From sequence record DRR378314_409: 64,000 bases of DNA; one strand, given 5' to 3'. The notes under the pieces are model-generated. The model did not search any database. It was not told the origin of the DNA and was given only the letters and a program-made list of their open reading frames with translations. Positions 23,635-52,152 of this stretch are shown here, in pieces. A program made the translations under genes and the position numbers. How positions within the stretch are numbered: position 1 is the first letter of the stretch; every line of letters starts with the position of its first letter.

Positions 23635-25110
23635 ATGCGATTGTTACGGACAGCTATACTGGCAGGAATGCTTGTTCTACCAACAGGGTTAGCGTTTGCA
23701 ACATACGAGGATGGGCTTAAAGCTTATAACAGCGGCGATTTCAAGCAGGCTGCGACCCTCTGGGAAGAGTTGGCAATTGCGGGCAATGTAAATGCTCAAT
23801 ACAATCTTGGCGTGATCCATGAACAGGGAGGAGAAGACCAGCCGAAAGATCTTGCGCTCGCCTATGCATGGTATCGATTGGCTGCTTCTCAGGAAATGCC
23901 GGAAGCCTTGCAGGCTGTTAGCCGTCTGAAAGAATTGCTAACAACCGGTCAGATTGAAGACGGTAATAAATACGCAGTAACAGTACTGGGTAAATGGTAT
24001 CGCCAATCTGTCGGTATGTCCGATGACGAATTTAAGAAAATCATCGAAGCGCGCGCGGCGCGGGAAAAAGCCAAAATTGAAGCCGAAAATCGTCAGGCTG
24101 CTGAACGGGTTCAGCGTCAGCGAGCGTTGATCGCTCAGCGGGATGCGGATGCAAAGCTGGCAAAAAAGCTTGAAGAACAAAGCCGACAGGACGCCTTGAA
24201 AGCAGCAAGAGAGCAAGCTGAGGAGGCAAAACGCAAAGCTTACCTTGCGCAGAAACAGCGTGAGGAAGAGGAGCGGATGGCAAGGCTGCGAGAGCAGAAG
24301 AAGGAACAAGATGCGCGGCAGTCCGTTTTACAAAGACTGGCGGAACTGAAAGCAAAACAACAAGGAAACCTACCATCAGCATCGGCGGCTGACCAGTTAA
24401 ATCCTGGGCAGTCAAAGTCAATAGAAGCTGTTCCAGCTCAGCCGAAATCAACACCCGCACCGGAAAAAGCACAGCCTCAAAAAGCACCAAAATCCTCTTC
24501 GGATTCAAGTCAAACCAAGGCGACGGTGGTTCAGCCCAAAGTGATCGAGCCAGTCACGCAGCGGCCAAAACCAACTGAAGTTCAGACAATTGAGCCCAAA
24601 GCGGCCTCGGCGCAGCCGGTTAAGCAATCTTCAGCACCAACAGTTGTTGCAAAATCTGTTGCCGAGCCTTTGGCTCCGGAAAAATCAGCGGCACAAAATC
24701 AGGTGGAAAAACCGGAGCCTGAACAGGTGATCAAGGAAGAGACCGCACCACTCAAAAAAGAGGGGCAGGAGCCTGAAAAGGTTGCAGCCCTACCCAAGCA
24801 ATCATCGAAACCAGATGTTCCGACAACCACCATGCCGGTGATAGCGAATGGTTTGGATCAGAGCGTTGTCGCACAGATCCTGCAGGCTGCCCAAAGTGTA
24901 TCTCTGAATACACCTTCTGCTAAAGATCAGATTGAAGCTAAACGCAACGATATTGAAGCACTGAAATGGTCTTTGATATCTTCTGCACGCGGTAAAGCAG
25001 GTGCCAAGGACATGAACCAGCGCTTGATGGACAATATGTCTGATGTGCAGATCGCAGAGGCAAATCGCCGGGCAGCCGATTGGATCCTTAAACGTCAGGC
25101 CCGCCAGTAA
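23635..25110 (+). CDS. secreted Sel1-repeat protein with coiled coil and Pro/Ala/Lys-rich linker
   Basis: Signal peptide; AQYNLGVIHEQG..DLALAYAWYRLAA Sel1 repeat. Confidence 0.8.
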   Translation: MRLLRTAILAGMLVLPTGLAFATYEDGLKAYNSGDFKQAATLWEELAIAGNVNAQYNLGVIHEQGGEDQPKDLALAYAWYRLAASQEMPEALQAVSRLKELLTTGQIEDGNKYAVTVLGKWYRQSVGMSDDEFKKIIEARAAREKAKIEAENRQAAERVQRQRALIAQRDADAKLAKKLEEQSRQDALKAAREQAEEAKRKAYLAQKQREEEERMARLREQKKEQDARQSVLQRLAELKAKQQGNLPSASAADQLNPGQSKSIEAVPAQPKSTPAPEKAQPQKAPKSSSDSSQTKATVVQPKVIEPVTQRPKPTEVQTIEPKAASAQPVKQSSAPTVVAKSVAEPLAPEKSAAQNQVEKPEPEQVIKEETAPLKKEGQEPEKVAALPKQSSKPDVPTTTMPVIANGLDQSVVAQILQAAQSVSLNTPSAKDQIEAKRNDIEALKWSLISSARGKAGAKDMNQRLMDNMSDVQIAEANRRAADWILKRQARQ

Positions 25111-39894: not shown

Positions 39895-41922
39895 ATGGAA
39901 ATGAAGAAACCGTCCGGACCTCGGAGCGTAGCACTTGTCGGACCTTACTCCAGTGGCAAGACGTCGCTGATGGAAGCTATCCTGCATATTTGTGGTGAGG
40001 TTGATCGCAAGGGCAAGGTAGAAGATGGCACAAGCGTCGGCGATAGTAGTCTTGAAGCCAGAGATCGAAAAATGAGCGTTGAGGTCAACTCCGCTCATTT
40101 TTCTTTTATGGGGGATTCTTTTTCCCTTTTGGACTGCCCGGGCTCCATAGAATTTATACAGGAAAGTAGGAGTGTACTTGCCGGAGTGGATGCTGCTGTT
40201 CTGGTTTGTGAACCTGATCCCACCCGTAATATGACCATGCTTCCAGCCTTAAAAATGCTGGAAGAAATGAATATTCCAACATTCATTTTCGTCAATAAAA
40301 TTGATCGGGCCAAAGGCAGTGTCCACGATCTCTTCAAATCGCTTGAGGAGGTCTCTGAGCGGGATCTGGTTTTGCGGCAGATCCCGATTGTCAATGACGG
40401 AACTGTGACTGGATATGTGGATTTGGCGTCTGAACGCGCTTATGTTTATAAAGATGGTCAAGCCTCTCGCATCATAGAAATGCCGCCAGAGGTGGCAGAA
40501 ATGGAGGGGACATCCCGCTTTACCATGTTGGAAACCCTGGCCGACTATGACGATCATTTAATGGAAGAACTTCTGGAAGATATTGAGCCAGAACAAGAAG
40601 AGGTTTACGGGTTGTTACAGACGGATTTACAGCAGGGGTTTGTTGTCCCTGTTTTTTTGGGGGCGGCTATAACTGATCATGGGGTGCGCCGATTGTTGAA
40701 GGCAATCCGGCATGAAGTGCCGTCCAATGCAAGCTCCGCTAATAACCACCATCTGAAGATTGCTGCGAATAAGCCGGCAGCGCAGGTTTTAAAAACTTAT
40801 ATTTCGCCGCAAGGAGGGAAGCTGTCACTCGTTCGGATTTGGTCTGGCGAACTGACTGACGGCGATAAATTCTTTTTTGGTCGGGTAACTGGTTTACAGC
40901 GAATGACAGGGACAAATCTGGAAAAGGTGGGTTCTGCCAAAGAAGGGGAAATTGTGGCTCTTTCGCGGATTGACGAAATTCAAACTGGAGATATTTTTAC
41001 CGATACAGAAAAATGGCAAGCAGAACATGTACAGTCTATGGAACCAGTTTATGACTTTTCTCTTTCTGCTGAGAAGCATGAAGAAGATGTGAAGCTGACT
41101 GCAGCCCTCAGTAAAATGTCTGAGGAAGATCCCTCACTCTTCTCAATCCATCGACAAGAAACTCAGGAGTTGCTTCTGCGAGGGCAGGGAGAAATACACT
41201 TAAAGGTCGCGTTGGATCGATTGAAGAGTAAGTTTGGCCTCAACGTAACCGCTAAAACGCCTAAAATTGCTTATCGAGAGGCTATTCGCAAAGCTGTCAT
41301 TCACCATGCCCGGTTTAAAAAACAAAGCGGTGGGCATGGTCAATTTGGCGATGTAAAAATTGAAATTAAACCTCTGGAGCGTGGCCAGGGATTTGAATTT
41401 CATGACACCGTTGTCGGGGGATCCATTCCCAAACAATATATCCCGGCAGTTGAAACAGGTGTGAAGGAGTATCTGGGGGAGGGACCGCTTGGTTTCCCGG
41501 TAGTGGATGTTGCTGTGACGCTACTGGACGGTCAGCATCATTCCGTTGACAGCTCCGAGAATGCGTTTAAATCGGCGGCTCGAATTGCCATGAGTGAAGG
41601 GATGCTAAAATGCTCTCCCGTGCTGTTGGAGCCGATCTGCAGAGTGGAAATAGCCATGCCCTCAGACTATATCGCCAAAATCAATGGCATTGTCAGCTCC
41701 CGACGAGGGCAAATTCTGGGGTTCGATAATCGTGAAGGCTGGTTTGGATGGGATATATTGACCGCCCTTATTCCAGAGCAGGAACTCAGGGACCTGATTA
41801 TTGATATCAGGTCGGCTACTCAAGGGGTTGGAACCTACAGCGCCCGATTTGATCATTTGCAGGAATTAACAGGTACGCTCGCTGAAAAGGTGGTCGAGCA
41901 AAAAGACCAAACGGCAAACTAA
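39895..41922 (+). CDS. elongation factor G-like protein (EF-G2 paralogue)
   Basis: GPYSSGKT, DCPG, NKID, GQGEIHL and KKQSGGHGQFG motifs; outside the str operon. Confidence 0.92.
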   Translation: MEMKKPSGPRSVALVGPYSSGKTSLMEAILHICGEVDRKGKVEDGTSVGDSSLEARDRKMSVEVNSAHFSFMGDSFSLLDCPGSIEFIQESRSVLAGVDAAVLVCEPDPTRNMTMLPALKMLEEMNIPTFIFVNKIDRAKGSVHDLFKSLEEVSERDLVLRQIPIVNDGTVTGYVDLASERAYVYKDGQASRIIEMPPEVAEMEGTSRFTMLETLADYDDHLMEELLEDIEPEQEEVYGLLQTDLQQGFVVPVFLGAAITDHGVRRLLKAIRHEVPSNASSANNHHLKIAANKPAAQVLKTYISPQGGKLSLVRIWSGELTDGDKFFFGRVTGLQRMTGTNLEKVGSAKEGEIVALSRIDEIQTGDIFTDTEKWQAEHVQSMEPVYDFSLSAEKHEEDVKLTAALSKMSEEDPSLFSIHRQETQELLLRGQGEIHLKVALDRLKSKFGLNVTAKTPKIAYREAIRKAVIHHARFKKQSGGHGQFGDVKIEIKPLERGQGFEFHDTVVGGSIPKQYIPAVETGVKEYLGEGPLGFPVVDVAVTLLDGQHHSVDSSENAFKSAARIAMSEGMLKCSPVLLEPICRVEIAMPSDYIAKINGIVSSRRGQILGFDNREGWFGWDILTALIPEQELRDLIIDIRSATQGVGTYSARFDHLQELTGTLAEKVVEQKDQTAN

Positions 41923-42014: not shown

Positions 42015-42986
42015 ATGCTTATCAAATCAAATAATTCTTGGGACCTATCGGAAAACCAGGTTCTGGATGTGAGTAAATACCTTAATCGACGGTCAATTTT
42101 GAAATCAATCGGAATGGGTGGTTTGATTGCGGGCGCATCGACCACATTTCCGGGTCGATTTGCATTTGCGGCGGATGATCCAAGTGCTCATTTATATCCT
42201 GTTCCTCAAAATACCCTATACGAAGGCGGGCGCGATCTGACACCTGAAAAAATAGCGACCACATATAACAACTTCTATGAATTTGGATCTCACAAGGAGA
42301 TATACAAAGCAGCTCAAGCCCTGAAGCTGCGGCCATGGTCGGTTATGATCGATGGGGCCGTTGAAAAAGACACGCAGATTGATATTGACGACCTATTGGC
42401 AAAAATGCCGCTGGAAGAGCGGATCTACCGCCATCGCTGTGTAGAGGCGTGGTCCATGGTTGTGCCATGGAGTGGCTTTCCATTGAAAGAATTGGTTAAG
42501 ATCGCCAATCCAACGTCAAAAGCAAAATATCTAGTGATGCAGACTTTCGAGGATAAAAGCGTTGCAACCGGCCAACGTCAATTCTGGTATCCCTGGCCAT
42601 ATACAGAGGGGCTAACGATGGCGGAGGCAACGAATGACCTGGCATTTGTTGCCACTGGGCTTTATGGAAAGCCGCTCCCAAAGCAAAGCGGCGCACCGCT
42701 TCGTTTAGCAGTTCCCTGGAAATATGGATTTAAGCACATTAAATCTATCGTTCGCTTCCATTTTAGTGAGGAGCGTCCTAAGAGTTTTTGGGAAGAATTG
42801 AACGCTAAGGAATATGGGTTCTGGGCGAACGTGAACCCGGAAGTTCCGCATCCACGTTGGTCTCAAGAGACCGAGCGGGATATCGCAACGAACAAGCGAA
42901 TTCCTACTCAGTTATTTAATGGATACGGCGAAGCAGTTGCGTCCTTATATGAAGGTTTAGGCGCACAGGAAAGACTGTATTTATAA
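42015..42986 (+). CDS. msrP: protein-methionine-sulfoxide reductase catalytic subunit
   Basis: Tat signal; YNNFYEFG, RCVEAW and PWKYGFK motifs. Confidence 0.95.
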   Translation: MLIKSNNSWDLSENQVLDVSKYLNRRSILKSIGMGGLIAGASTTFPGRFAFAADDPSAHLYPVPQNTLYEGGRDLTPEKIATTYNNFYEFGSHKEIYKAAQALKLRPWSVMIDGAVEKDTQIDIDDLLAKMPLEERIYRHRCVEAWSMVVPWSGFPLKELVKIANPTSKAKYLVMQTFEDKSVATGQRQFWYPWPYTEGLTMAEATNDLAFVATGLYGKPLPKQSGAPLRLAVPWKYGFKHIKSIVRFHFSEERPKSFWEELNAKEYGFWANVNPEVPHPRWSQETERDIATNKRIPTQLFNGYGEAVASLYEGLGAQERLYL

Positions 42987-43120
42987 AAAAAGTCAGCCTC
43001 AATAGAGGCTGACAATTTTACAGGGTGGTATGCTGTGCCGCATACCCATCAGCCCAACAGGGAGAGTTCGGGCTGAACTGTGAAGGGAGACGATTGAGGG
43101 GGGATGTCTGCCCTTCATAA
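42985..43120 (-). ncRNA. candidate sRNA A (AbcR-position sibling)
   Basis: Three hairpins (two with C-rich loops), CCCUGUAA linker, terminator at 42985-43013. Confidence 0.65.
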
Positions 43121-43192
43121 TTAATATATGGAGTCGTTTCGTGCTTTTTCTATCAGTCATTTGTCATGGCAGATATGCGTTGCTGTCATGAC

Positions 43193-43350
43193 AAAAAAAG
43201 ACCAGCCTCTTTACAGAGGCTGGTAAGTCTAACAGGGAGGTATCATCCGAGGATGATATGCTACTCGCAACTGGGAGGAAGGCGAGTAGCGGAGAATATC
43301 GATAAAGGGGGTCGATATCCTGATCAATGCTGCGATGCAGCGTTGATGAT
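43193..43350 (-). ncRNA. candidate sRNA B (AbcR-like)
   Basis: Four hairpins including a UUCCUCCCAG loop; CCUCCCUGUUAGACUU linker; terminator at 43193-43224. Confidence 0.72.
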
Positions 43351-43475
43351 TGGAATATAGGCAAATGCACGTTTAAATGCCACCCTTTTTTTTGCAGTGC
43401 ACCCATGCATTTTGCGCATACCTAGATATAAAGGCCTAATCCATTTGTACGATGATGTTTGGAATGCGTTTGAGC

Positions 43476-43645
43476 AAAAAAAAGGCCAATCCTTGGGAGG
43501 AAGGATTGGCCTTAACTAACAGGGGATGTCATGAGAGTGTCATGACAGCTACTTGACACTGGGAGGAAATCAAATAGCAGTGTTCACGAAACATATGGGA
43601 GACTGTCGTGAAACAAAGAGAGTGTTGCGTTGCAACAATCAATGA
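43476..43645 (-). ncRNA. candidate sRNA C (AbcR-like)
   Basis: Hairpins with UUCCUCCCAG and CUCCCA loops; CCCCUGUUAG linker; terminator at 43476-43513 with CCUCCC loop. Confidence 0.72.
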
Positions 43646-43766
43646 CTGTGTTTTATGGGATCTGGCGGATAAAGAGTAGTAGAATAATTTCAAACCGGAT
43701 ATGCAGCATATGCATACCTGAGAGAGTCTGACTAAATATCAGAACAGAGTAATGTAAAGAGGCTGC

Positions 43767-44657
43767 CTAAAAAAATGACTCTGAGACTTTGCGGATCAGG
43801 AAATCTCTAAAGATGGTCACTCGTTTGGAATTTCTAAGTTCTTCTGGATAGACGTAATAGGCATCAAACTCCGGTCCTTCTAATTCAGGTAGAACCCGGA
43901 CCAGTCCTTTATGACCTTGTGTGATGTAGTCGGGCAGACTGCCAATGCCAAGACCGCTCTGAATAGCCAATAACAATCCATACACATTATTGACTTTGAA
44001 GATCGGCTGGATGTTTTCATCAACGTCTTTCAACAGGTCCAGGATCCAATTAACGCTGGCTATGTTAGAGGGGGCTTCGTCCCCATAAATCAATATTTTG
44101 CGATCGACAAGATCGTCAAGCTTTTTGGGTGTCCCGTTTTTCTGGATATATTCCGTCGACGCGTACAGATGATGTTTAACCGACATCAGCTTTCGCATGA
44201 TCAGGTCAGGCTGAACTGGCTCTCTGAGGCGGATGGCTACGTCCGCTTCGCGCATCGCCAGATCCAATTCGCGGTCCGCAAGGATCAAATTGACTGTGAT
44301 GTCTGGATACAGATCAATAAATTCACGGATTCTCGGGGTTAGCCAGTTTGATCCCACCCCGACAGTTGCCGACACCTTGATTTCCCCTGTGGGTTTATCT
44401 TTCGTGTCGGCCAACATCGCTTCAGTCATGGCGAGCTTGGCAAAAATCTCATGGGCGGTTTGATAGAGAAGCTCACCCTGCTCGGTCAGTAGGAGGCCGC
44501 GGGCATGGCGGTGAAACAAGGGTAACTGCAGACTTTCTTCCAATGCACTGATTTGTCTGCTGACCGCAGATTGACTTAAGTGCAGGGATTCTCCGGCATG
44601 GGTGAAGCTTCCAGCTTCCGCTACCGCATGAAAAATCCTGAGCTTATCCCAATCCAT
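43767..44657 (-). CDS. lsrB: LysR regulator LsrB/VtlR orthologue
   Basis: MDWDKLRIFHAVAEAGSFTHAG..FHRHARGL; downstream of trxB and near lrp (conserved synteny). Confidence 0.85.
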   Translation of the reverse strand: MDWDKLRIFHAVAEAGSFTHAGESLHLSQSAVSRQISALEESLQLPLFHRHARGLLLTEQGELLYQTAHEIFAKLAMTEAMLADTKDKPTGEIKVSATVGVGSNWLTPRIREFIDLYPDITVNLILADRELDLAMREADVAIRLREPVQPDLIMRKLMSVKHHLYASTEYIQKNGTPKKLDDLVDRKILIYGDEAPSNIASVNWILDLLKDVDENIQPIFKVNNVYGLLLAIQSGLGIGSLPDYITQGHKGLVRVLPELEGPEFDAYYVYPEELRNSKRVTIFRDFLIRKVSESFF

Positions 44658-44790: not shown

Positions 44791-45735
44791 TCATTCATTC
44801 TCAGCTATATACCGTTCCGCCTCCAGGGCCGCCATGCAGCCTGTCCCTGCTGCTGTTACAGCTTGGCGGTAGATCTTGTCTTGCACGTCACCGCAAGCAA
44901 ACAGGCCTGGAATATTTGTCGCGGTGGAATCTGCGGCTGTTAGAATATAGCCTTCGCTGTCCATATCGACCTTCCCCTTAAACAAGTCCGTATTTGGGGT
45001 ATGGCCGATAGCAATAAAGACACCATGAACATCCACATGTGTTGTGTCATTCGTTTTCACATTTTTCAGCTGAACACCCGTTACGCCTGGGGGTTGCTGA
45101 TCTCCAACAATTTCATCCAGGACAGTGTCCCAAAGAACCTCAATCTTTTCGTTCTTCATCAGCCGGTCGATGAGGATTTTTTCAGCCCGGAACTCATCCC
45201 GGCGATGAATGACGGTTACTTTTGATGCATGGTTGGTAAGGTAGAGTGCTTCTTCCACTGCAGTGTTTCCGCCACCGACGACGAGTACTTCCTTGCCACG
45301 GTAGAAAAATCCGTCGCAAGTCGCGCAGGCTGACACGCCAAAGCCCATGAATTTTTCTTCAGACGGGATGCCCAGCCATTTGGCAGACGCGCCGGTCGAG
45401 ATAATGACACTGTCCGCAATATACTTGGCCCCGCTATCCGCCGTGGCGATAAACGGCCGCTGTGATGTATCCAGATCCGTGATGATATCGTAATGGATAT
45501 CAGTTCCAACATTCTTGGCCTGTGCTTCCATTTGTTCCATCAGCCAGGGCCCTTGAATAGGGTCAGCAAAACCAGGGTAATTTTCTACATCTGTTGTTAT
45601 CGTAAGCTGTCCGCCGGGTTGGAGCCCATGCACCATGATCGGGTTCAAAGACGCGCGCGCAGCATAGATGGCGGCAGTACAGCCGGCGGGGCCGGACCCA
45701 ATAATCAGTACGTTTGTTTTATGTGTATCTGCCAT
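44791..45735 (-). CDS. trxB: thioredoxin reductase
   Basis: GSGPAG, CATCDG, GGGNTAVEEA and RQAVTAAG motifs. Confidence 0.98.
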   Translation of the reverse strand: MADTHKTNVLIIGSGPAGCTAAIYAARASLNPIMVHGLQPGGQLTITTDVENYPGFADPIQGPWLMEQMEAQAKNVGTDIHYDIITDLDTSQRPFIATADSGAKYIADSVIISTGASAKWLGIPSEEKFMGFGVSACATCDGFFYRGKEVLVVGGGNTAVEEALYLTNHASKVTVIHRRDEFRAEKILIDRLMKNEKIEVLWDTVLDEIVGDQQPPGVTGVQLKNVKTNDTTHVDVHGVFIAIGHTPNTDLFKGKVDMDSEGYILTAADSTATNIPGLFACGDVQDKIYRQAVTAAGTGCMAALEAERYIAENE

Positions 45736-45859
45736 TTCCAACTCCTTGGCCAATCGTGCGTTCATCCACCCTACAGAACTGCTTTATGTATTATGACCTT
45801 TATGTCCATGCAAGAGGCATATATGGACAAAGCGGAGATAAGATGTCGCAAATATAGTG

Positions 45860-46837
45860 TTATGATCGGGATCGAGCGTTAAATTTTTTGAGAACAATTT
45901 CACCAACTCTTTGAGATTCCCTAAGAACTGGTGGCCGCCAAGAGGGAAGGTCACCCGTAAAGGGTCGGGTGTAGCCTTTTTTCTGCATTTGATTATGAAA
46001 AAAGTTGAATTTCCGATTGCCGCCTTCAAGCTCGAAAACCAGCGTTGGTTTGCCAGTTGAAACGGCTTCACATACCATATTTACAGAATCGGCCGTGACA
46101 ATGATGCTATCTGCAGACTCCAGGAAGGCAAAATAGGGGTTCGTCCCGCTTCCATCCCAAAAATAATGAGGAAGGCGAGAGAGTGTTTTCTTCAAAGTAG
46201 CCGTATTATCGGCACCTGTCCGCCGGGATGCCGTGACCAGAAAAAAGCAGCCTGTCTGATCGTGGAGCTTTTCCAGATGATTGCAAAGGGTGTCTATAAT
46301 GTCTGCTGTCATGCGGTAACATTTATTACTCCCCCCCACTAATACCGTCACGATAGGTTTTGCACCCTTGGGTACTAAATCAGGAAACTGTTGGTTGGCT
46401 AGGGTTAGTTTTTCTTCTGTGATCCGGGTGAGCGAGCCTTCGGTGGTGATCACATTCTCACCTCTGAGCCGGTCATGTTCTGGAACGATCACCAGATCAA
46501 AATGGGCTGCCGCAGTGTTTGGTGTCTGAATGTGGACAGTAAATGTCTTGCCTTCACTCTTTTTATGGATAGCGATGCTCATGGGAATAGCCTGACGGCC
46601 ACAGGTGATTAGGATCTCAGGCCATGGCTCATCAAGCTGATCTCCCTCTGTTTGCAATTGAGAGAGTGGACAGATCCAAAGCTGAGGCGGCAGCCATCGC
46701 CACGGTTTTTTGGTCTTTATCCGTTTGATGTCCGTGTGTAGCCCCATCGCCTCGGCAAGCCCGATACATTGGTTCTCCATCCCGGCGCTGCCATCCGTAA
46801 CAATCCAGCATGTCGGATTTTTGCGATCAGATTCCAT
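45860..46837 (-). CDS. ELM1/DUF1022-family protein
   Basis: GMENQCIGLAEA, PEHD, SRRT, NPY and VTADSVNM motifs. Confidence 0.85.
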   Translation of the reverse strand: MESDRKNPTCWIVTDGSAGMENQCIGLAEAMGLHTDIKRIKTKKPWRWLPPQLWICPLSQLQTEGDQLDEPWPEILITCGRQAIPMSIAIHKKSEGKTFTVHIQTPNTAAAHFDLVIVPEHDRLRGENVITTEGSLTRITEEKLTLANQQFPDLVPKGAKPIVTVLVGGSNKCYRMTADIIDTLCNHLEKLHDQTGCFFLVTASRRTGADNTATLKKTLSRLPHYFWDGSGTNPYFAFLESADSIIVTADSVNMVCEAVSTGKPTLVFELEGGNRKFNFFHNQMQKKGYTRPFTGDLPSWRPPVLRESQRVGEIVLKKFNARSRS

Positions 46838-46993
46838 ATAAGTTCTTTTGCTGCGACCAAGTTTTCCTGTTTGCACTATTCCTGACAGTTCTATTAGGTC
46901 AAGAAATTTAATTACGCGAAGGGAGATAACAAGGCTTGGAGAATTGGCTTCTTTGTAATATTATTGCGTGAAATAGTGATGTGGAGGCAATGT

Positions 46994-51928: not shown

Positions 51929-52030
51929 AAAAAAAGAGCCGCCTTTTAGGGCGGCTCAAGTCAACAGGGAGGCGTCAAACAGATTGGATGAGATCCAATC
52001 GACAACCCATGACGGGGCTGCTAAGTCTTA
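51929..52030 (-). ncRNA. candidate sRNA D
   Basis: Two hairpins, single-stranded UUUGACGCCUCCCUGUUGACUU, terminator at 51929-51957. Confidence 0.68.
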
Positions 52031-52046
52031 ATTTAAGCGTATTTTA

Positions 52047-52062
52047 TTAAATTACAATTAAC
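52047..52062. promoter_or_regulatory. CtrA box
   Basis: Exact TTAA-N7-TTAAC. Confidence 0.55.
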
Positions 52063-52152
52063 GAATACACGTATTGGCGCTTTTTTTCAAAAAAATGTAA
52101 AACTTCAGTAATATTTGGATCTGAACATCAAAAGTTTTACCTATAAATCAGC

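Follow-up and report, generated by a model that had tools for sequence, protein, structure and literature searches.

In our window (the whole 64,000-nt stretch of DNA that was analysed), msrP and an lsrB/vtlR-like LysR-family gene are separated by a 780-bp gap, which holds three units of ~134, ~155 and ~170 nt on the minus strand. We read this array as a triplication, specific to one lineage, of an lsrB-linked anti-Shine-Dalgarno sRNA that occurs across the class and is related to AbcR, suhB/MmgR and SorX. The units are quite probably three separately transcribed, trans-acting sRNA genes, which arose in the Sneathiella lineage by triplication of the non-Rhizobiales counterpart of AbcR. The nearest relatives of the window were MAGs labelled Sneathiella, and not Rhizobiales. 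The regulator-plus-sRNA pair has so far been studied mainly in rhizobia and their relatives, and the array represents a tripled, enlarged version of it.

Locus layout and predicted RNA folds

The order on the minus strand is trxB, the LysR gene, and then units C, B and A. The thioredoxin reductase gene trxB (44791..45765, minus strand; TIGR01292, 424 bits, cut-off 343) lies directly upstream of the LysR gene (43767..44657, minus strand; 296 aa, Pfam HTH_1 and LysR_substrate). On the plus strand, msrP (42015..42986; NCBIfam NF003767, 419 bits, cut-off 207) is convergent with the array and bounds the locus. Both flanking genes named in the preliminary description were thus recovered, MsrP by NCBIfam and the LysR-family gene by Pfam.

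All three units combine a strong terminator with C-rich loops of the CUCCCA type and a CCCUGU linker that is single-stranded. Unit C (43474..43645, minus strand; ~170 nt, predicted from the fold and model R1, see below) comes first after the LysR gene. Its predicted hairpins are, from 5' to 3', a palindromic one, one with a CUCCCA loop, one with a UUUCCUCCCAG loop and a small one, followed by the single-stranded linker CCCCUGUUAG and a terminator with a CCUCCC loop. Its 5' end was placed by promoter spacing; the 5' ends of all units are guesses from the -10 spacing, and all starts are predicted. The middle unit B (43192..43347, minus strand; ~155 nt, predicted from fold, covariation and model R2) has five predicted hairpins, with CCCCCUUU and CUUCCUCCCAGU loops, and a 16-nt single-stranded stretch, CCUCCCUGUUAGACUU, ahead of the terminator, including its linker CCUCCCUGUUAG. 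Unit A (42983..43118, minus strand; ~134 nt, predicted from the fold, R1 and R2) is the last and abuts the msrP stop. It has AUCCCCCCUCAAU and CUCUCCC loops, the linker CCACCCUGUAAAA and a terminator at its end. Of the three copies it diverges most, and the palindromic 5' hairpin is absent from it.

A hairpin with a UUCCUCCCAGU loop was common to B (43260-43290) and C (43548-43578), and a CAGCCUC terminator stem to A and B. These shared elements, the CCUCCC in the terminator loop of C and the common layout of three minus-strand units had all been claimed from the letters alone, and every item was present at its position. The claim that the units are paralogues with one architecture also stood: R1, a covariance model built from unit-B orthologues, matched all three, with 148.5 bits for B, 69.8 for C (43476-43642) and 43.1 for A. 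C-rich loops and terminators are simple features, and covariance models reward them.

The terminator scan of the minus strand between 42800 and 43900 gave four sites, compared with 0.8 ± 0.9 in shuffles. Three were the unit terminators (stems 43513-43482, 43224-43201 and 43013-42992) and the fourth was the 5' hairpin of unit C. The folds had -59.7 kcal/mol for A (z -7.3), -61.6 kcal/mol for B (z -9.4) and -53.0 kcal/mol for C (z -7.2). For each unit, none of 200 shuffles was as good; this was the folding check proposed with the preliminary description.

The covariation check across relatives likewise showed heavy compensatory change in the five-hairpin fold. The alignment of 15 units from five genomes (A7) had five common helices, 93.2% of cells paired and compensatory changes in 41 of 43 pairs, with 0/500 shuffles matching and 32-45% of cells paired in slid controls, figures that are favoured because A7 was fitted to the model. 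In an ordinary MAFFT alignment of the unit B orthologues (five genomes, mean identity 75%), compensatory change was found in 15 of 43 pairs. The MAFFT alignments of units 1 and 3 (A1, A3) were left out of the pair counts because their linkers were misaligned. Aligning distant members over their whole length (A5) resolved the 3' part alone.

A hairpin-dense region between convergent genes could also consist of repetitive extragenic palindromes, or of terminators stacked for LysR and msrP. However, in the whole genomes of four relatives R1 matched the three array units and only four other, weak places, the non-terminator helices covary, and operator and linker are conserved across orders. We therefore regard this explanation as highly improbable.

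The units overlap with minus-strand ORFs of 80, 54 and 53 codons, and genes for small proteins are among those that VtlR activates in Brucella and Agrobacterium (PMC7486931), a precedent for units that encode small proteins. In tblastn against the four relatives these ORFs gave fragments only, broken by stops and frame changes, and on this ground the coding reading was rejected. In addition, the ORF sets differ between genomes and the substitutions track base-pairing and not codons. We give almost no credence to a coding function.

Operators, promoters and the LysR regulator

Two of the units have a LysR-type operator dyad, ATGC-N7-GCAT, ahead of them, at -73 from the predicted start of C (43701..43715) and at -72 from that of B (43405..43419). 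These were the only two such dyads in the 64-kb window. For unit C, a near-consensus LsrB box, GCAT-N3-CG-N3-T, a one-base variant, begins with the right half of the dyad (43692-43704). Unit B has an exact LsrB/VtlR box, GCAT-N3-TG-N3-T, which overlaps the dyad (43396-43408, minus strand). It spans -61 to -49 relative to the start predicted for B, and all five Sneathiella-type arrays have it in exact form. The box consensus and position are described in PMC7486931 and PMC8844928; the latter reports the LsrB box at -61 to -49 of PabcR1 and activation of abcR1 by LsrB. Upstream of unit A there is an exact box (43166..43178, minus strand) and no exact dyad, the left half being degenerate. The box was not enriched across the window (13 sites, 11.85 expected) and is therefore informative by its placement only.

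Over all loci, a dyad was found within 160 nt upstream of 41 of 51 units, with a modal position of -72/-73. These upstream dyads made up 39 of all 50 dyads in 322.5 kb of loci.

Promoter-like -35/-10 pairs were detected for unit B (43354..43383, minus strand; GTGGCA, 18-nt spacer, TATATT; 9/12 matches) and unit A (43123..43152, minus strand; TAGAAA, 18-nt spacer, TATATT). The -10 element of B was kept in four relatives. The sigma-70 scan as a whole did not rise above chance, with three sites and 2.1 ± 1.3 expected, and gave no promoter-like site for unit C.

This last result fits an origin of the first unit, or of the whole array, by read-through from the LysR gene and 3' UTR processing instead of from own promoters. 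SorX reportedly arises in this way. The units share the strand of the LysR gene, and no terminator was found between its stop (43767) and unit C. In contrast, the dyad is conserved at a fixed -72/-73 before C, B and most relatives, and it also precedes the unit in five of eight loci without a LysR gene within 1.5 kb. The strong terminators after C and B would moreover stop read-through into the next unit. We consider a read-through origin quite unlikely.

We presume that the LysR gene encodes the activator of units A, B and C. Its product was 45-57% identical to the LysR proteins encoded beside ar15 (AbcR) hits, including 48% to the one beside a tandem ar15 pair. PMC7486931 reports conservation of the trxB-vtlR order in Alphaproteobacteria. 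LsrB was called "unique to Rhizobiales" in a paper of 2025 (PMC11975290). The window LysR has no cysteine. It has no counterpart of the redox-active cysteines of LsrB (C144/C273 in Agrobacterium), and the three cysteines of the LysR beside the tandem ar15 pair were absent from 24 of 25 orthologues. Without the cysteines on which redox sensing by LsrB depends, the window LysR may answer to a different signal, and any redox response would have to be indirect. This raises the question of which signal drives the circuit outside rhizobia.

Relation to AbcR and to other sRNA families

The preliminary description had placed the array at the AbcR position, and this was borne out. The units follow a trxB-linked LysR gene on its own strand, like the tandem siblings AbcR1/AbcR2 in Sinorhizobium, Agrobacterium and Brucella. 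Among 25 loci with an ar15 hit, 13 had this same LysR upstream on the sRNA strand. The operator and its distance are also the same: an ar15 locus scoring 127 bits has its dyad at -72 and, at -61, a GCAT-N3-TG-N3-T box. Both kinds of RNA have a hairpin loop with UUCCUCCCA/CUCCCA, which R1 places on AbcR stem-loop 1, and a second, single-stranded and C-rich seed.

The RNAs themselves differ. AbcR is ~115 nt long with three helices, whereas the window units have 134-170 nt and five helices, so that the three-hairpin form of 110-120 nt was not found here. AbcR motifs M1 and M2 have been described (PMC5461406). Motif 1 (CUCCCA / CUCCUCCC) occupies the loop of the first hairpin in AbcR. In the window units, CUCCCA was seen in later hairpin loops of B and C as well as in the terminator loop of C, whereas the first hairpin has none; unit A carries CUCCCU. 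Motif 2 (GUUCCC / UUCCCCUC) has no GUUCCC counterpart in any unit. The single-stranded seed of the units reads CCUCCCUGUU, CCCCUGUU or CCACCCUGU and stands just before the terminator, while GUUCCC in AbcR stands between stem-loops 1 and 2. Further differences are the three copies, the host outside Rhizobiales and the regulator without cysteines.

The sequence link of the units to ar15 appears weak. The ar15 model (RF02345, gathering score 40 bits) gave no match at E ≤ 10 in 42900-43800, and none at E ≤ 0.01 in two genomes with orthologous arrays (G001, G002). Should ar15 belong to the clan of suhB, weaker overlapping ar15 matches could be hidden on two of the units, but their scores would have to be lower than 32.3 bits (B) and 16.8 bits (C). 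In the opposite direction, R1 did not match the two best ar15 copies (L084, L102) and gave a partial match of 26 nt on L105. A 2012 survey found alpha-r15 in Rhizobiales only (PMC3346310).

Several other families gave sub-threshold, partly reciprocal matches, namely suhB/MmgR, ar14, SorX/SorY, BjrC1505 and divergent ar15 members. With suhB/MmgR (alpha-r8; RF00519, threshold 41) we obtained 32.3 bits on B, 16.8 on C and no match on A. The likeness is in the 3' half, with a short hairpin, an unpaired CCUCCCU-type seed, AGACUU and the terminator. In Sphingopyxis granuli, SuhB is LysR-activated through a T-N11-A site and, with Hfq, blocks a Shine-Dalgarno site (bioRxiv 10.64898/2025.12.09.693200). 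The window units may likewise be under a LysR protein; activation is reported there and predicted here.

SorX and SorY of Rhodobacter sphaeroides (RF02784, RF02651) are shorter RNAs with a near-identical ACCUCCCUGUU-GA seed directly before the terminator. They scored 19-27 bits, with 26.6 for SorX on B, against thresholds of 46.6 and 111. According to PMC4615379, SorY is driven by RpoHI/HII promoters and represses, together with Hfq, the mRNA of the transporter binding protein TakP (takP).

The ar14 model (RF02344, threshold 58.8) has CCUCCUCCC in all hairpin loops and gave 30 bits, on unit C only. The alpha-r14 or "cuckoo" sRNAs occur as arrays, for example CcsR1-4. Tandem homologous sRNAs and CCUCC-rich loops, with CCUCCC in the terminator loop of unit C, are thus common to both. 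Unlike in alpha-r14, the genomic context is that of the LysR gene, and the CCUCCC terminator loop of C was not kept in the unit-1 orthologues.

The same window also contains a BjrC1505 match (RF02356; 51929-52065). It shares the CCUCCCUGUU-plus-terminator 3' module with the units and gave 32 bits with R2 and 24.4 with R1, but its 5' part differs. No dyad and no LsrB box were found upstream of it. Unit B scored 19.5 bits on the BjrC1505 model, with a threshold of 50.

Such matches could mean that the units are simply divergent members of suhB/MmgR alpha-r8, ar14 "cuckoo" or ar15/AbcR, with nothing new about them. Apart from the scores of B and C above, the orthologue of the third unit in L001 reached 41.2 bits with suhB, just at its threshold, and one R2 match coincided with a threshold-level SorX match (genome L129). 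The second hairpin and terminator of ar15 are shared with suhB according to del Val 2012 (PMC3346310). However, no family reached its gathering score on any window unit, and no Rfam match was found at the sRNA in 19 of 20 strong R2 loci or in 15 of 16 LysR loci scanned. The units are twice as long as suhB (~77 nt, one short helix), with five helices, and suhB copies are described without fixed neighbours (PMC1273637), while the units are tied to one neighbour gene. Plain membership in these families is therefore unlikely.

Paralogy, position, box and Rfam results all being supported, the reading of the units as elaborated siblings at the AbcR position holds. The suggestion of an undescribed family stood in part. 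The units form an uncatalogued branch that reaches no Rfam threshold, but they belong to a known, class-wide kind with sub-threshold kin.

Distribution and proposed function

The sRNA family is class-wide and single-copy in most lineages. The three-unit array was kept in all four complete Sneathiella-type loci. Outside them, R1 matched at full length, and on the strand of the LysR gene, in another 36 loci; in 32 of these the match starts 95-304 nt past the gene. Of 75 other LysR loci, 44 had a single-copy relative behind the LysR gene. The LysR-linked loci recovered number 48. A second model, R2, was built from 36 members without any Sneathiella-type sequence. It nevertheless matched all 15 Sneathiella-type units, with 39.1 bits for B, 26.6 for A and only 16.0 for C in the window. 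The sRNA 3' module was present in 76 of 151 sampled alphaproteobacterial genomes. The window units fit the lsrB-linked anti-Shine-Dalgarno pattern, with a small hairpin, an unpaired CCUCCCUGUU-type linker, a terminator, LysR synteny and dyads at -72/-73.

Text searches of the literature for the invariant hairpin and linker strings returned only unrelated animal studies, figure and supplement sequences being outside their scope; for the 10-nt strings, the matches listed were unrelated primers only.

Gene order, operator and spacing were common to records labelled Sneathiella, Minwuia, Kiloniella, Dongia, Reyranella and Rhodospirillales. Since these features recur outside Rhizobiales and the 3' module is found in half of the sampled genomes, the pair is possibly a general device. 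The regulator-sRNA circuit described in symbionts and pathogens may thus be general in Alphaproteobacteria and have been missed by genome annotation.

In the proposed mechanism, each sRNA gene would have its own promoter behind an LsrB/VtlR-type operator centred near -66, and the identity and spacing of the operator suggest that the LysR regulator switches the sRNAs on. Each RNA is predicted, from computed folding and covariation, to form a row of hairpins displaying C-rich anti-Shine-Dalgarno sequences. The CUCCCA-type loops and the CCUCCCUGUU-type single strand that immediately precedes the terminator are the putative seeds. As proposed from the examples of AbcR, SuhB and SorY, they may pair with the ribosome-binding regions of mRNAs, probably with Hfq, which was present in 4/4 related genomes. 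Such pairing would prevent translation or lead to decay of the target mRNAs, which probably encode transporter binding proteins and metabolic enzymes. Transcription of the units, their LysR dependence, their use of Hfq and their targets are what we infer from these features.

More tentatively, the lsrB-sRNA pair could be an ancient, class-wide alphaproteobacterial cassette, with AbcR as its shortened Rhizobiales form, and the cysteine-free regulator outside Rhizobiales could answer a signal other than thiol oxidation. The Sneathiella triplication, with three or four seeds per RNA, might then place three partly distinct regulons under one regulator, and the sequence-conserved 5' palindromic hairpin could provide feedback, either as a second operator or as a site at which the RNA binds protein. 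We hold this combined scenario to be possible and doubtful. The tripled multi-seed form offers a natural experiment on how sibling sRNAs divide a regulon.

The window itself was scanned for targets with nine seeds and duplex energies at 294 candidate starts, and no gene was singled out. An exact complement of the linker at 23822-23831 was rejected as a target; it falls within an ORF of 491 codons and is probably a chance match. The top sites of the scan were strong Shine-Dalgarno regions, including those of an EF-G paralogue and of trxB.

Layout, folding and conservation of the array

The minus strand at 42983-43645 reads as three consecutive units, C (43474..43645), B (43192..43347) and A (42983..43118). 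A LysR-family gene lies directly upstream on the same strand, preceded by trxB, and msrP is convergent with the array. Strong terminator stems, each followed by a U-run, were found at 43513-43482, 43224-43201 and 43013-42992 (minus strand). A terminator scan of 42800-43900 gave four minus-strand sites, against 0.8 ± 0.9 in shuffled sequences, the fourth being the 5' hairpin of unit C. Folded alone, units A, B and C reached -59.7, -61.6 and -53.0 kcal/mol (z -7.3, -9.4 and -7.2), and none of 200 shuffles was as good for any of them. Every sequence detail of the preliminary description was found where it had been placed: B and C have the UUCCUCCCAGU hairpin in common, A and B the CAGCCUC stem; C has CCUCCC in its terminator loop, and the linkers carry CCCUGU. 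Two other genes, an EF-G-family paralogue upstream of msrP (675 aa, 39895-41922, plus strand) and an ELM1-family gene (PF06258) beyond trxB (45860-46876, minus strand), are apparently ordinary neighbours.

The G + C content of the window is 48%. By LysR protein, the closest relatives in the species collection were MAGs labelled Sneathiella sp. (79, 78 and 76% identity), a genus of the Sneathiellales, not the Rhizobiales. The next ones (54-66%) came from records labelled Minwuia, Pelagibius, Kiloniella, Rhodospirillales, Dongia and Hyphomicrobiales. Of the five nearest loci, L001, L002, L003 and L005 had three units 3' of the LysR gene, and L004 was truncated; a ACCUCCCUGUUAGACUU-type linker plus terminator closed nearly every unit. 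Aligned with MAFFT, the five orthologues of unit B gave a consensus with five hairpins, and compensatory changes were seen at 15 of its 43 pairs. A covariance model from these orthologues, R1, matched all 15 Sneathiella-type units, scoring 148.5 bits on B, 69.8 on C and 43.1 on A in the window. When all 15 were aligned to the model, 93.2% of cells were paired and 41 of 43 pairs had changed on both sides, values reached by none of 500 shuffles; with slid partners, pairing fell to 32-45%. Since this alignment is biased towards the model, the MAFFT result is the cleaner of the two. In the whole genomes of four relatives, R1 recognized the three array units and only four other matches, all weak. 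All three units of the array are structured, conserved and closed by a terminator. A coding reading was rejected: the overlapping minus-strand ORFs (80, 54 and 53 codons) were not kept in relatives, where stops and shifts of frame occur and the set of ORFs is different.

The conserved copy is unit B, whose orthologues are on average 75% identical; the means were 53% (0.526) for unit 1 and 47% (0.471) for unit 3. Paralogues within one genome were 56% identical (0.558), no less alike than unit-1 or unit-3 orthologues. The terminator stems (42992-43013 and 43201-43224 in the window, units 1 and 3 in L003 and L005) also tended to match within a genome more than between positional orthologues. This within-genome likeness hints at gene conversion inside the array.

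Spread across Alphaproteobacteria

Another 36 LysR loci had full-length R1 matches (E ≤ 1e-4, covariance-model E-values being rough), each on the strand of the LysR gene. In 32 of them the match starts 95-304 nt after the gene, and in four 0.8-1.9 kb after it. Common to these members is an invariant core, in which a 5-bp hairpin with UCCCA in its loop is followed by unpaired GAAGCCUCCCUGUU and then by the terminator. A second model, R2, trained only on the final 95 nt of these 36 members, matched all 15 Sneathiella-type units (B 39.1, A 26.6 and C 16.0 bits in the window) and had strong matches in 8 of the 40 remaining LysR loci. Taking both models together, the RNA was present in 48 of 80 LysR loci.

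In an even sample of Alphaproteobacteria, 76 of 151 genomes had an R2 match at E ≤ 1e-4; because R2 also detects paralogous relatives, this counts the module, not the lsrB-linked gene. Among the best 30 R2 loci of this sample, 22 had the LysR gene no more than 1.5 kb away in the same orientation. The dyad ATGC-N7-GCAT, a LysR-type operator, was found 90-260 nt upstream of the module in 20, including five of the eight loci without a nearby LysR gene. Two sampled genomes each had two R2 matches 0.25-0.8 kb apart (G283:C2:86731-87569 and G294:C32:58271-58598), showing that tandem duplication of the sRNA is not confined to the Sneathiella lineage.

Relation to catalogued RNA families

No Rfam family matched in the msrP-LysR gap at gathering thresholds. 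At E ≤ 10, we detected suhB/MmgR (32.3 bits, threshold 41) on unit B and ar14 (30 bits, threshold 58.8) on unit C, together with SorX (26.6 bits, threshold 46.6), SorY (21.8, threshold 111) and BjrC1505 (19.5, threshold 50). For ar15 (alpha-r15/AbcR) there was no match at E ≤ 10 in the gap, where weaker overlapping ones would be masked if ar15 is in the suhB clan, and in two array-bearing genomes its model found nothing at E ≤ 0.01. Only one unit among 16 LysR loci reached an Rfam threshold (L001 unit 3, suhB, 41.2 vs 41), as did only one of 20 strong R2 loci (SorX, 46.8 vs 46.6).

Some evidence links the units to ar15. Sub-threshold ar15 matches in Roseibium and Pannonibacter coincided with R1 matches on one and the same sRNA. 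R1 matched full-length at the ar15 position in 15 of 25 ar15-match loci (E 2e-5 to 0.13). Four of these exceed the ar15 threshold of 40 bits, at 43-57 bits, and another scores 108.5 bits. In the R1 alignment, AbcR stem-loop 1 corresponds to the hairpin with the UUCCUCCCA loop. In contrast, the two best ar15 copies (L084 and L102) were unmatched by R1, a third (L105) was matched only partially, and R2 scores on ar15 members were marginal. Del Val et al. (PMC3346310) describe the second hairpin and terminator of ar15 as common to suhB and report ar15 in Rhizobiales only; LsrB is placed in Rhizobiales only in PMC11975290.

In our reading, the units are of the same broad kind as ar15, suhB, SorX, SorY and BjrC1505, and form an uncatalogued, longer, lsrB-tied branch. 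The earlier suggestion of an undescribed family holds for the branch, but not for the kind of RNA. It is plausible that ar15 descended from a longer lsrB-tied form. A search of the body text of papers found no bacterial one that printed the invariant strings. A Sphingopyxis preprint (bioRxiv 10.64898/2025.12.09.693200) ties a LysR regulator to SuhB, with 0 occurrences each of LsrB, VtlR and AbcR.

The only Rfam gathering match in the window was a full-length BjrC1505 sRNA (RF02356) at 51929-52065 (minus strand, 69.6 bits). The CCUCCCUGUU-plus-terminator module is common to this sRNA and the array (R2 32 bits, R1 24.4 bits), but neither an LsrB box nor a dyad precedes the sRNA. Comparably weak R1 matches occur in two relatives, 6-8 kb from their own arrays.

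Promoters, regulator and predicted mode of action

The LsrB/VtlR box is given as GCAT-N3-TG-N3-T in PMC7486931, and PMC8844928 places it at -61 to -49 in the S. meliloti abcR1 promoter. Over the whole window this pattern was not enriched (13 sites vs 11.85 expected). Two of the 13 are on the minus strand of the gap: 43408-43396, at -61 to -49 of the predicted unit B start, and 43178-43166, before unit A. Unit C has a variant differing by one base. Comparison of many loci gave a fuller motif, the dyad, whose right half begins the published box. Only two dyads occur in the 64-kb window, one 73 nt before the unit C start and one 72 nt before that of unit B. A dyad was found ≤160 nt upstream in 41 of 51 units, mostly at -68 to -78 (all unit starts being predicted). 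The loci, 322.5 kb in total, contain 50 dyads, of which 39 are those upstream of units. An operator of the LysR type is conserved at a constant distance from the units. Relative to its ar15 match, the genuine AbcR1-type locus L084 (ar15 127 bits) has the dyad at -72 and the box at -61; in three weaker ar15 loci the dyad lies at -72 or -73. With starts as predicted, the units and abcR1 therefore have their promoter architecture in common.

Agrobacterium LsrB senses oxidation via C144/C273, according to PMC11975290. The LysR of the window (43767-44657, minus strand) has no cysteine and, judged by its predicted protein, cannot use thiol-based redox sensing of this type. The three cysteines of the reference LysR beside the tandem ar15 pair of L084 were absent from 24 of 25 LysR orthologues.

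C-rich loops and the linker are exposed in the units. The adjacent LysR would activate each unit's promoter. The CUCCCA-type loops and CCUCCCUGUU-type linker may then pair with ribosome-binding regions, probably assisted by Hfq (hfq was found in all four relatives), and translation of the target mRNAs would be blocked. Like action has been reported for AbcR (PMC8844928 and PMC5461406), for Sphingopyxis SuhB in the preprint cited above, and for SorY (PMC4615379). Each unit has three or four different seeds and the sets differ among the three units, which suggests target sets that overlap without being identical. A target scan within the window singled out no target; an exact complement of the CCUCCCUGUU linker at 23822-23831 (plus strand), inside a 491-codon ORF (23635-25110), is probably due to chance.

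The 5'-terminal hairpin of units C and B (43623-43637 and 43323-43347, minus strand) is a sequence-conserved palindrome of the UGYUGCA...UGCARCA type, absent from unit A and kept in many distant members (many rows of alignment A4). It holds TGCA half-sites resembling the operator, and might serve as a second operator or, on the RNA, as a site for a protein.
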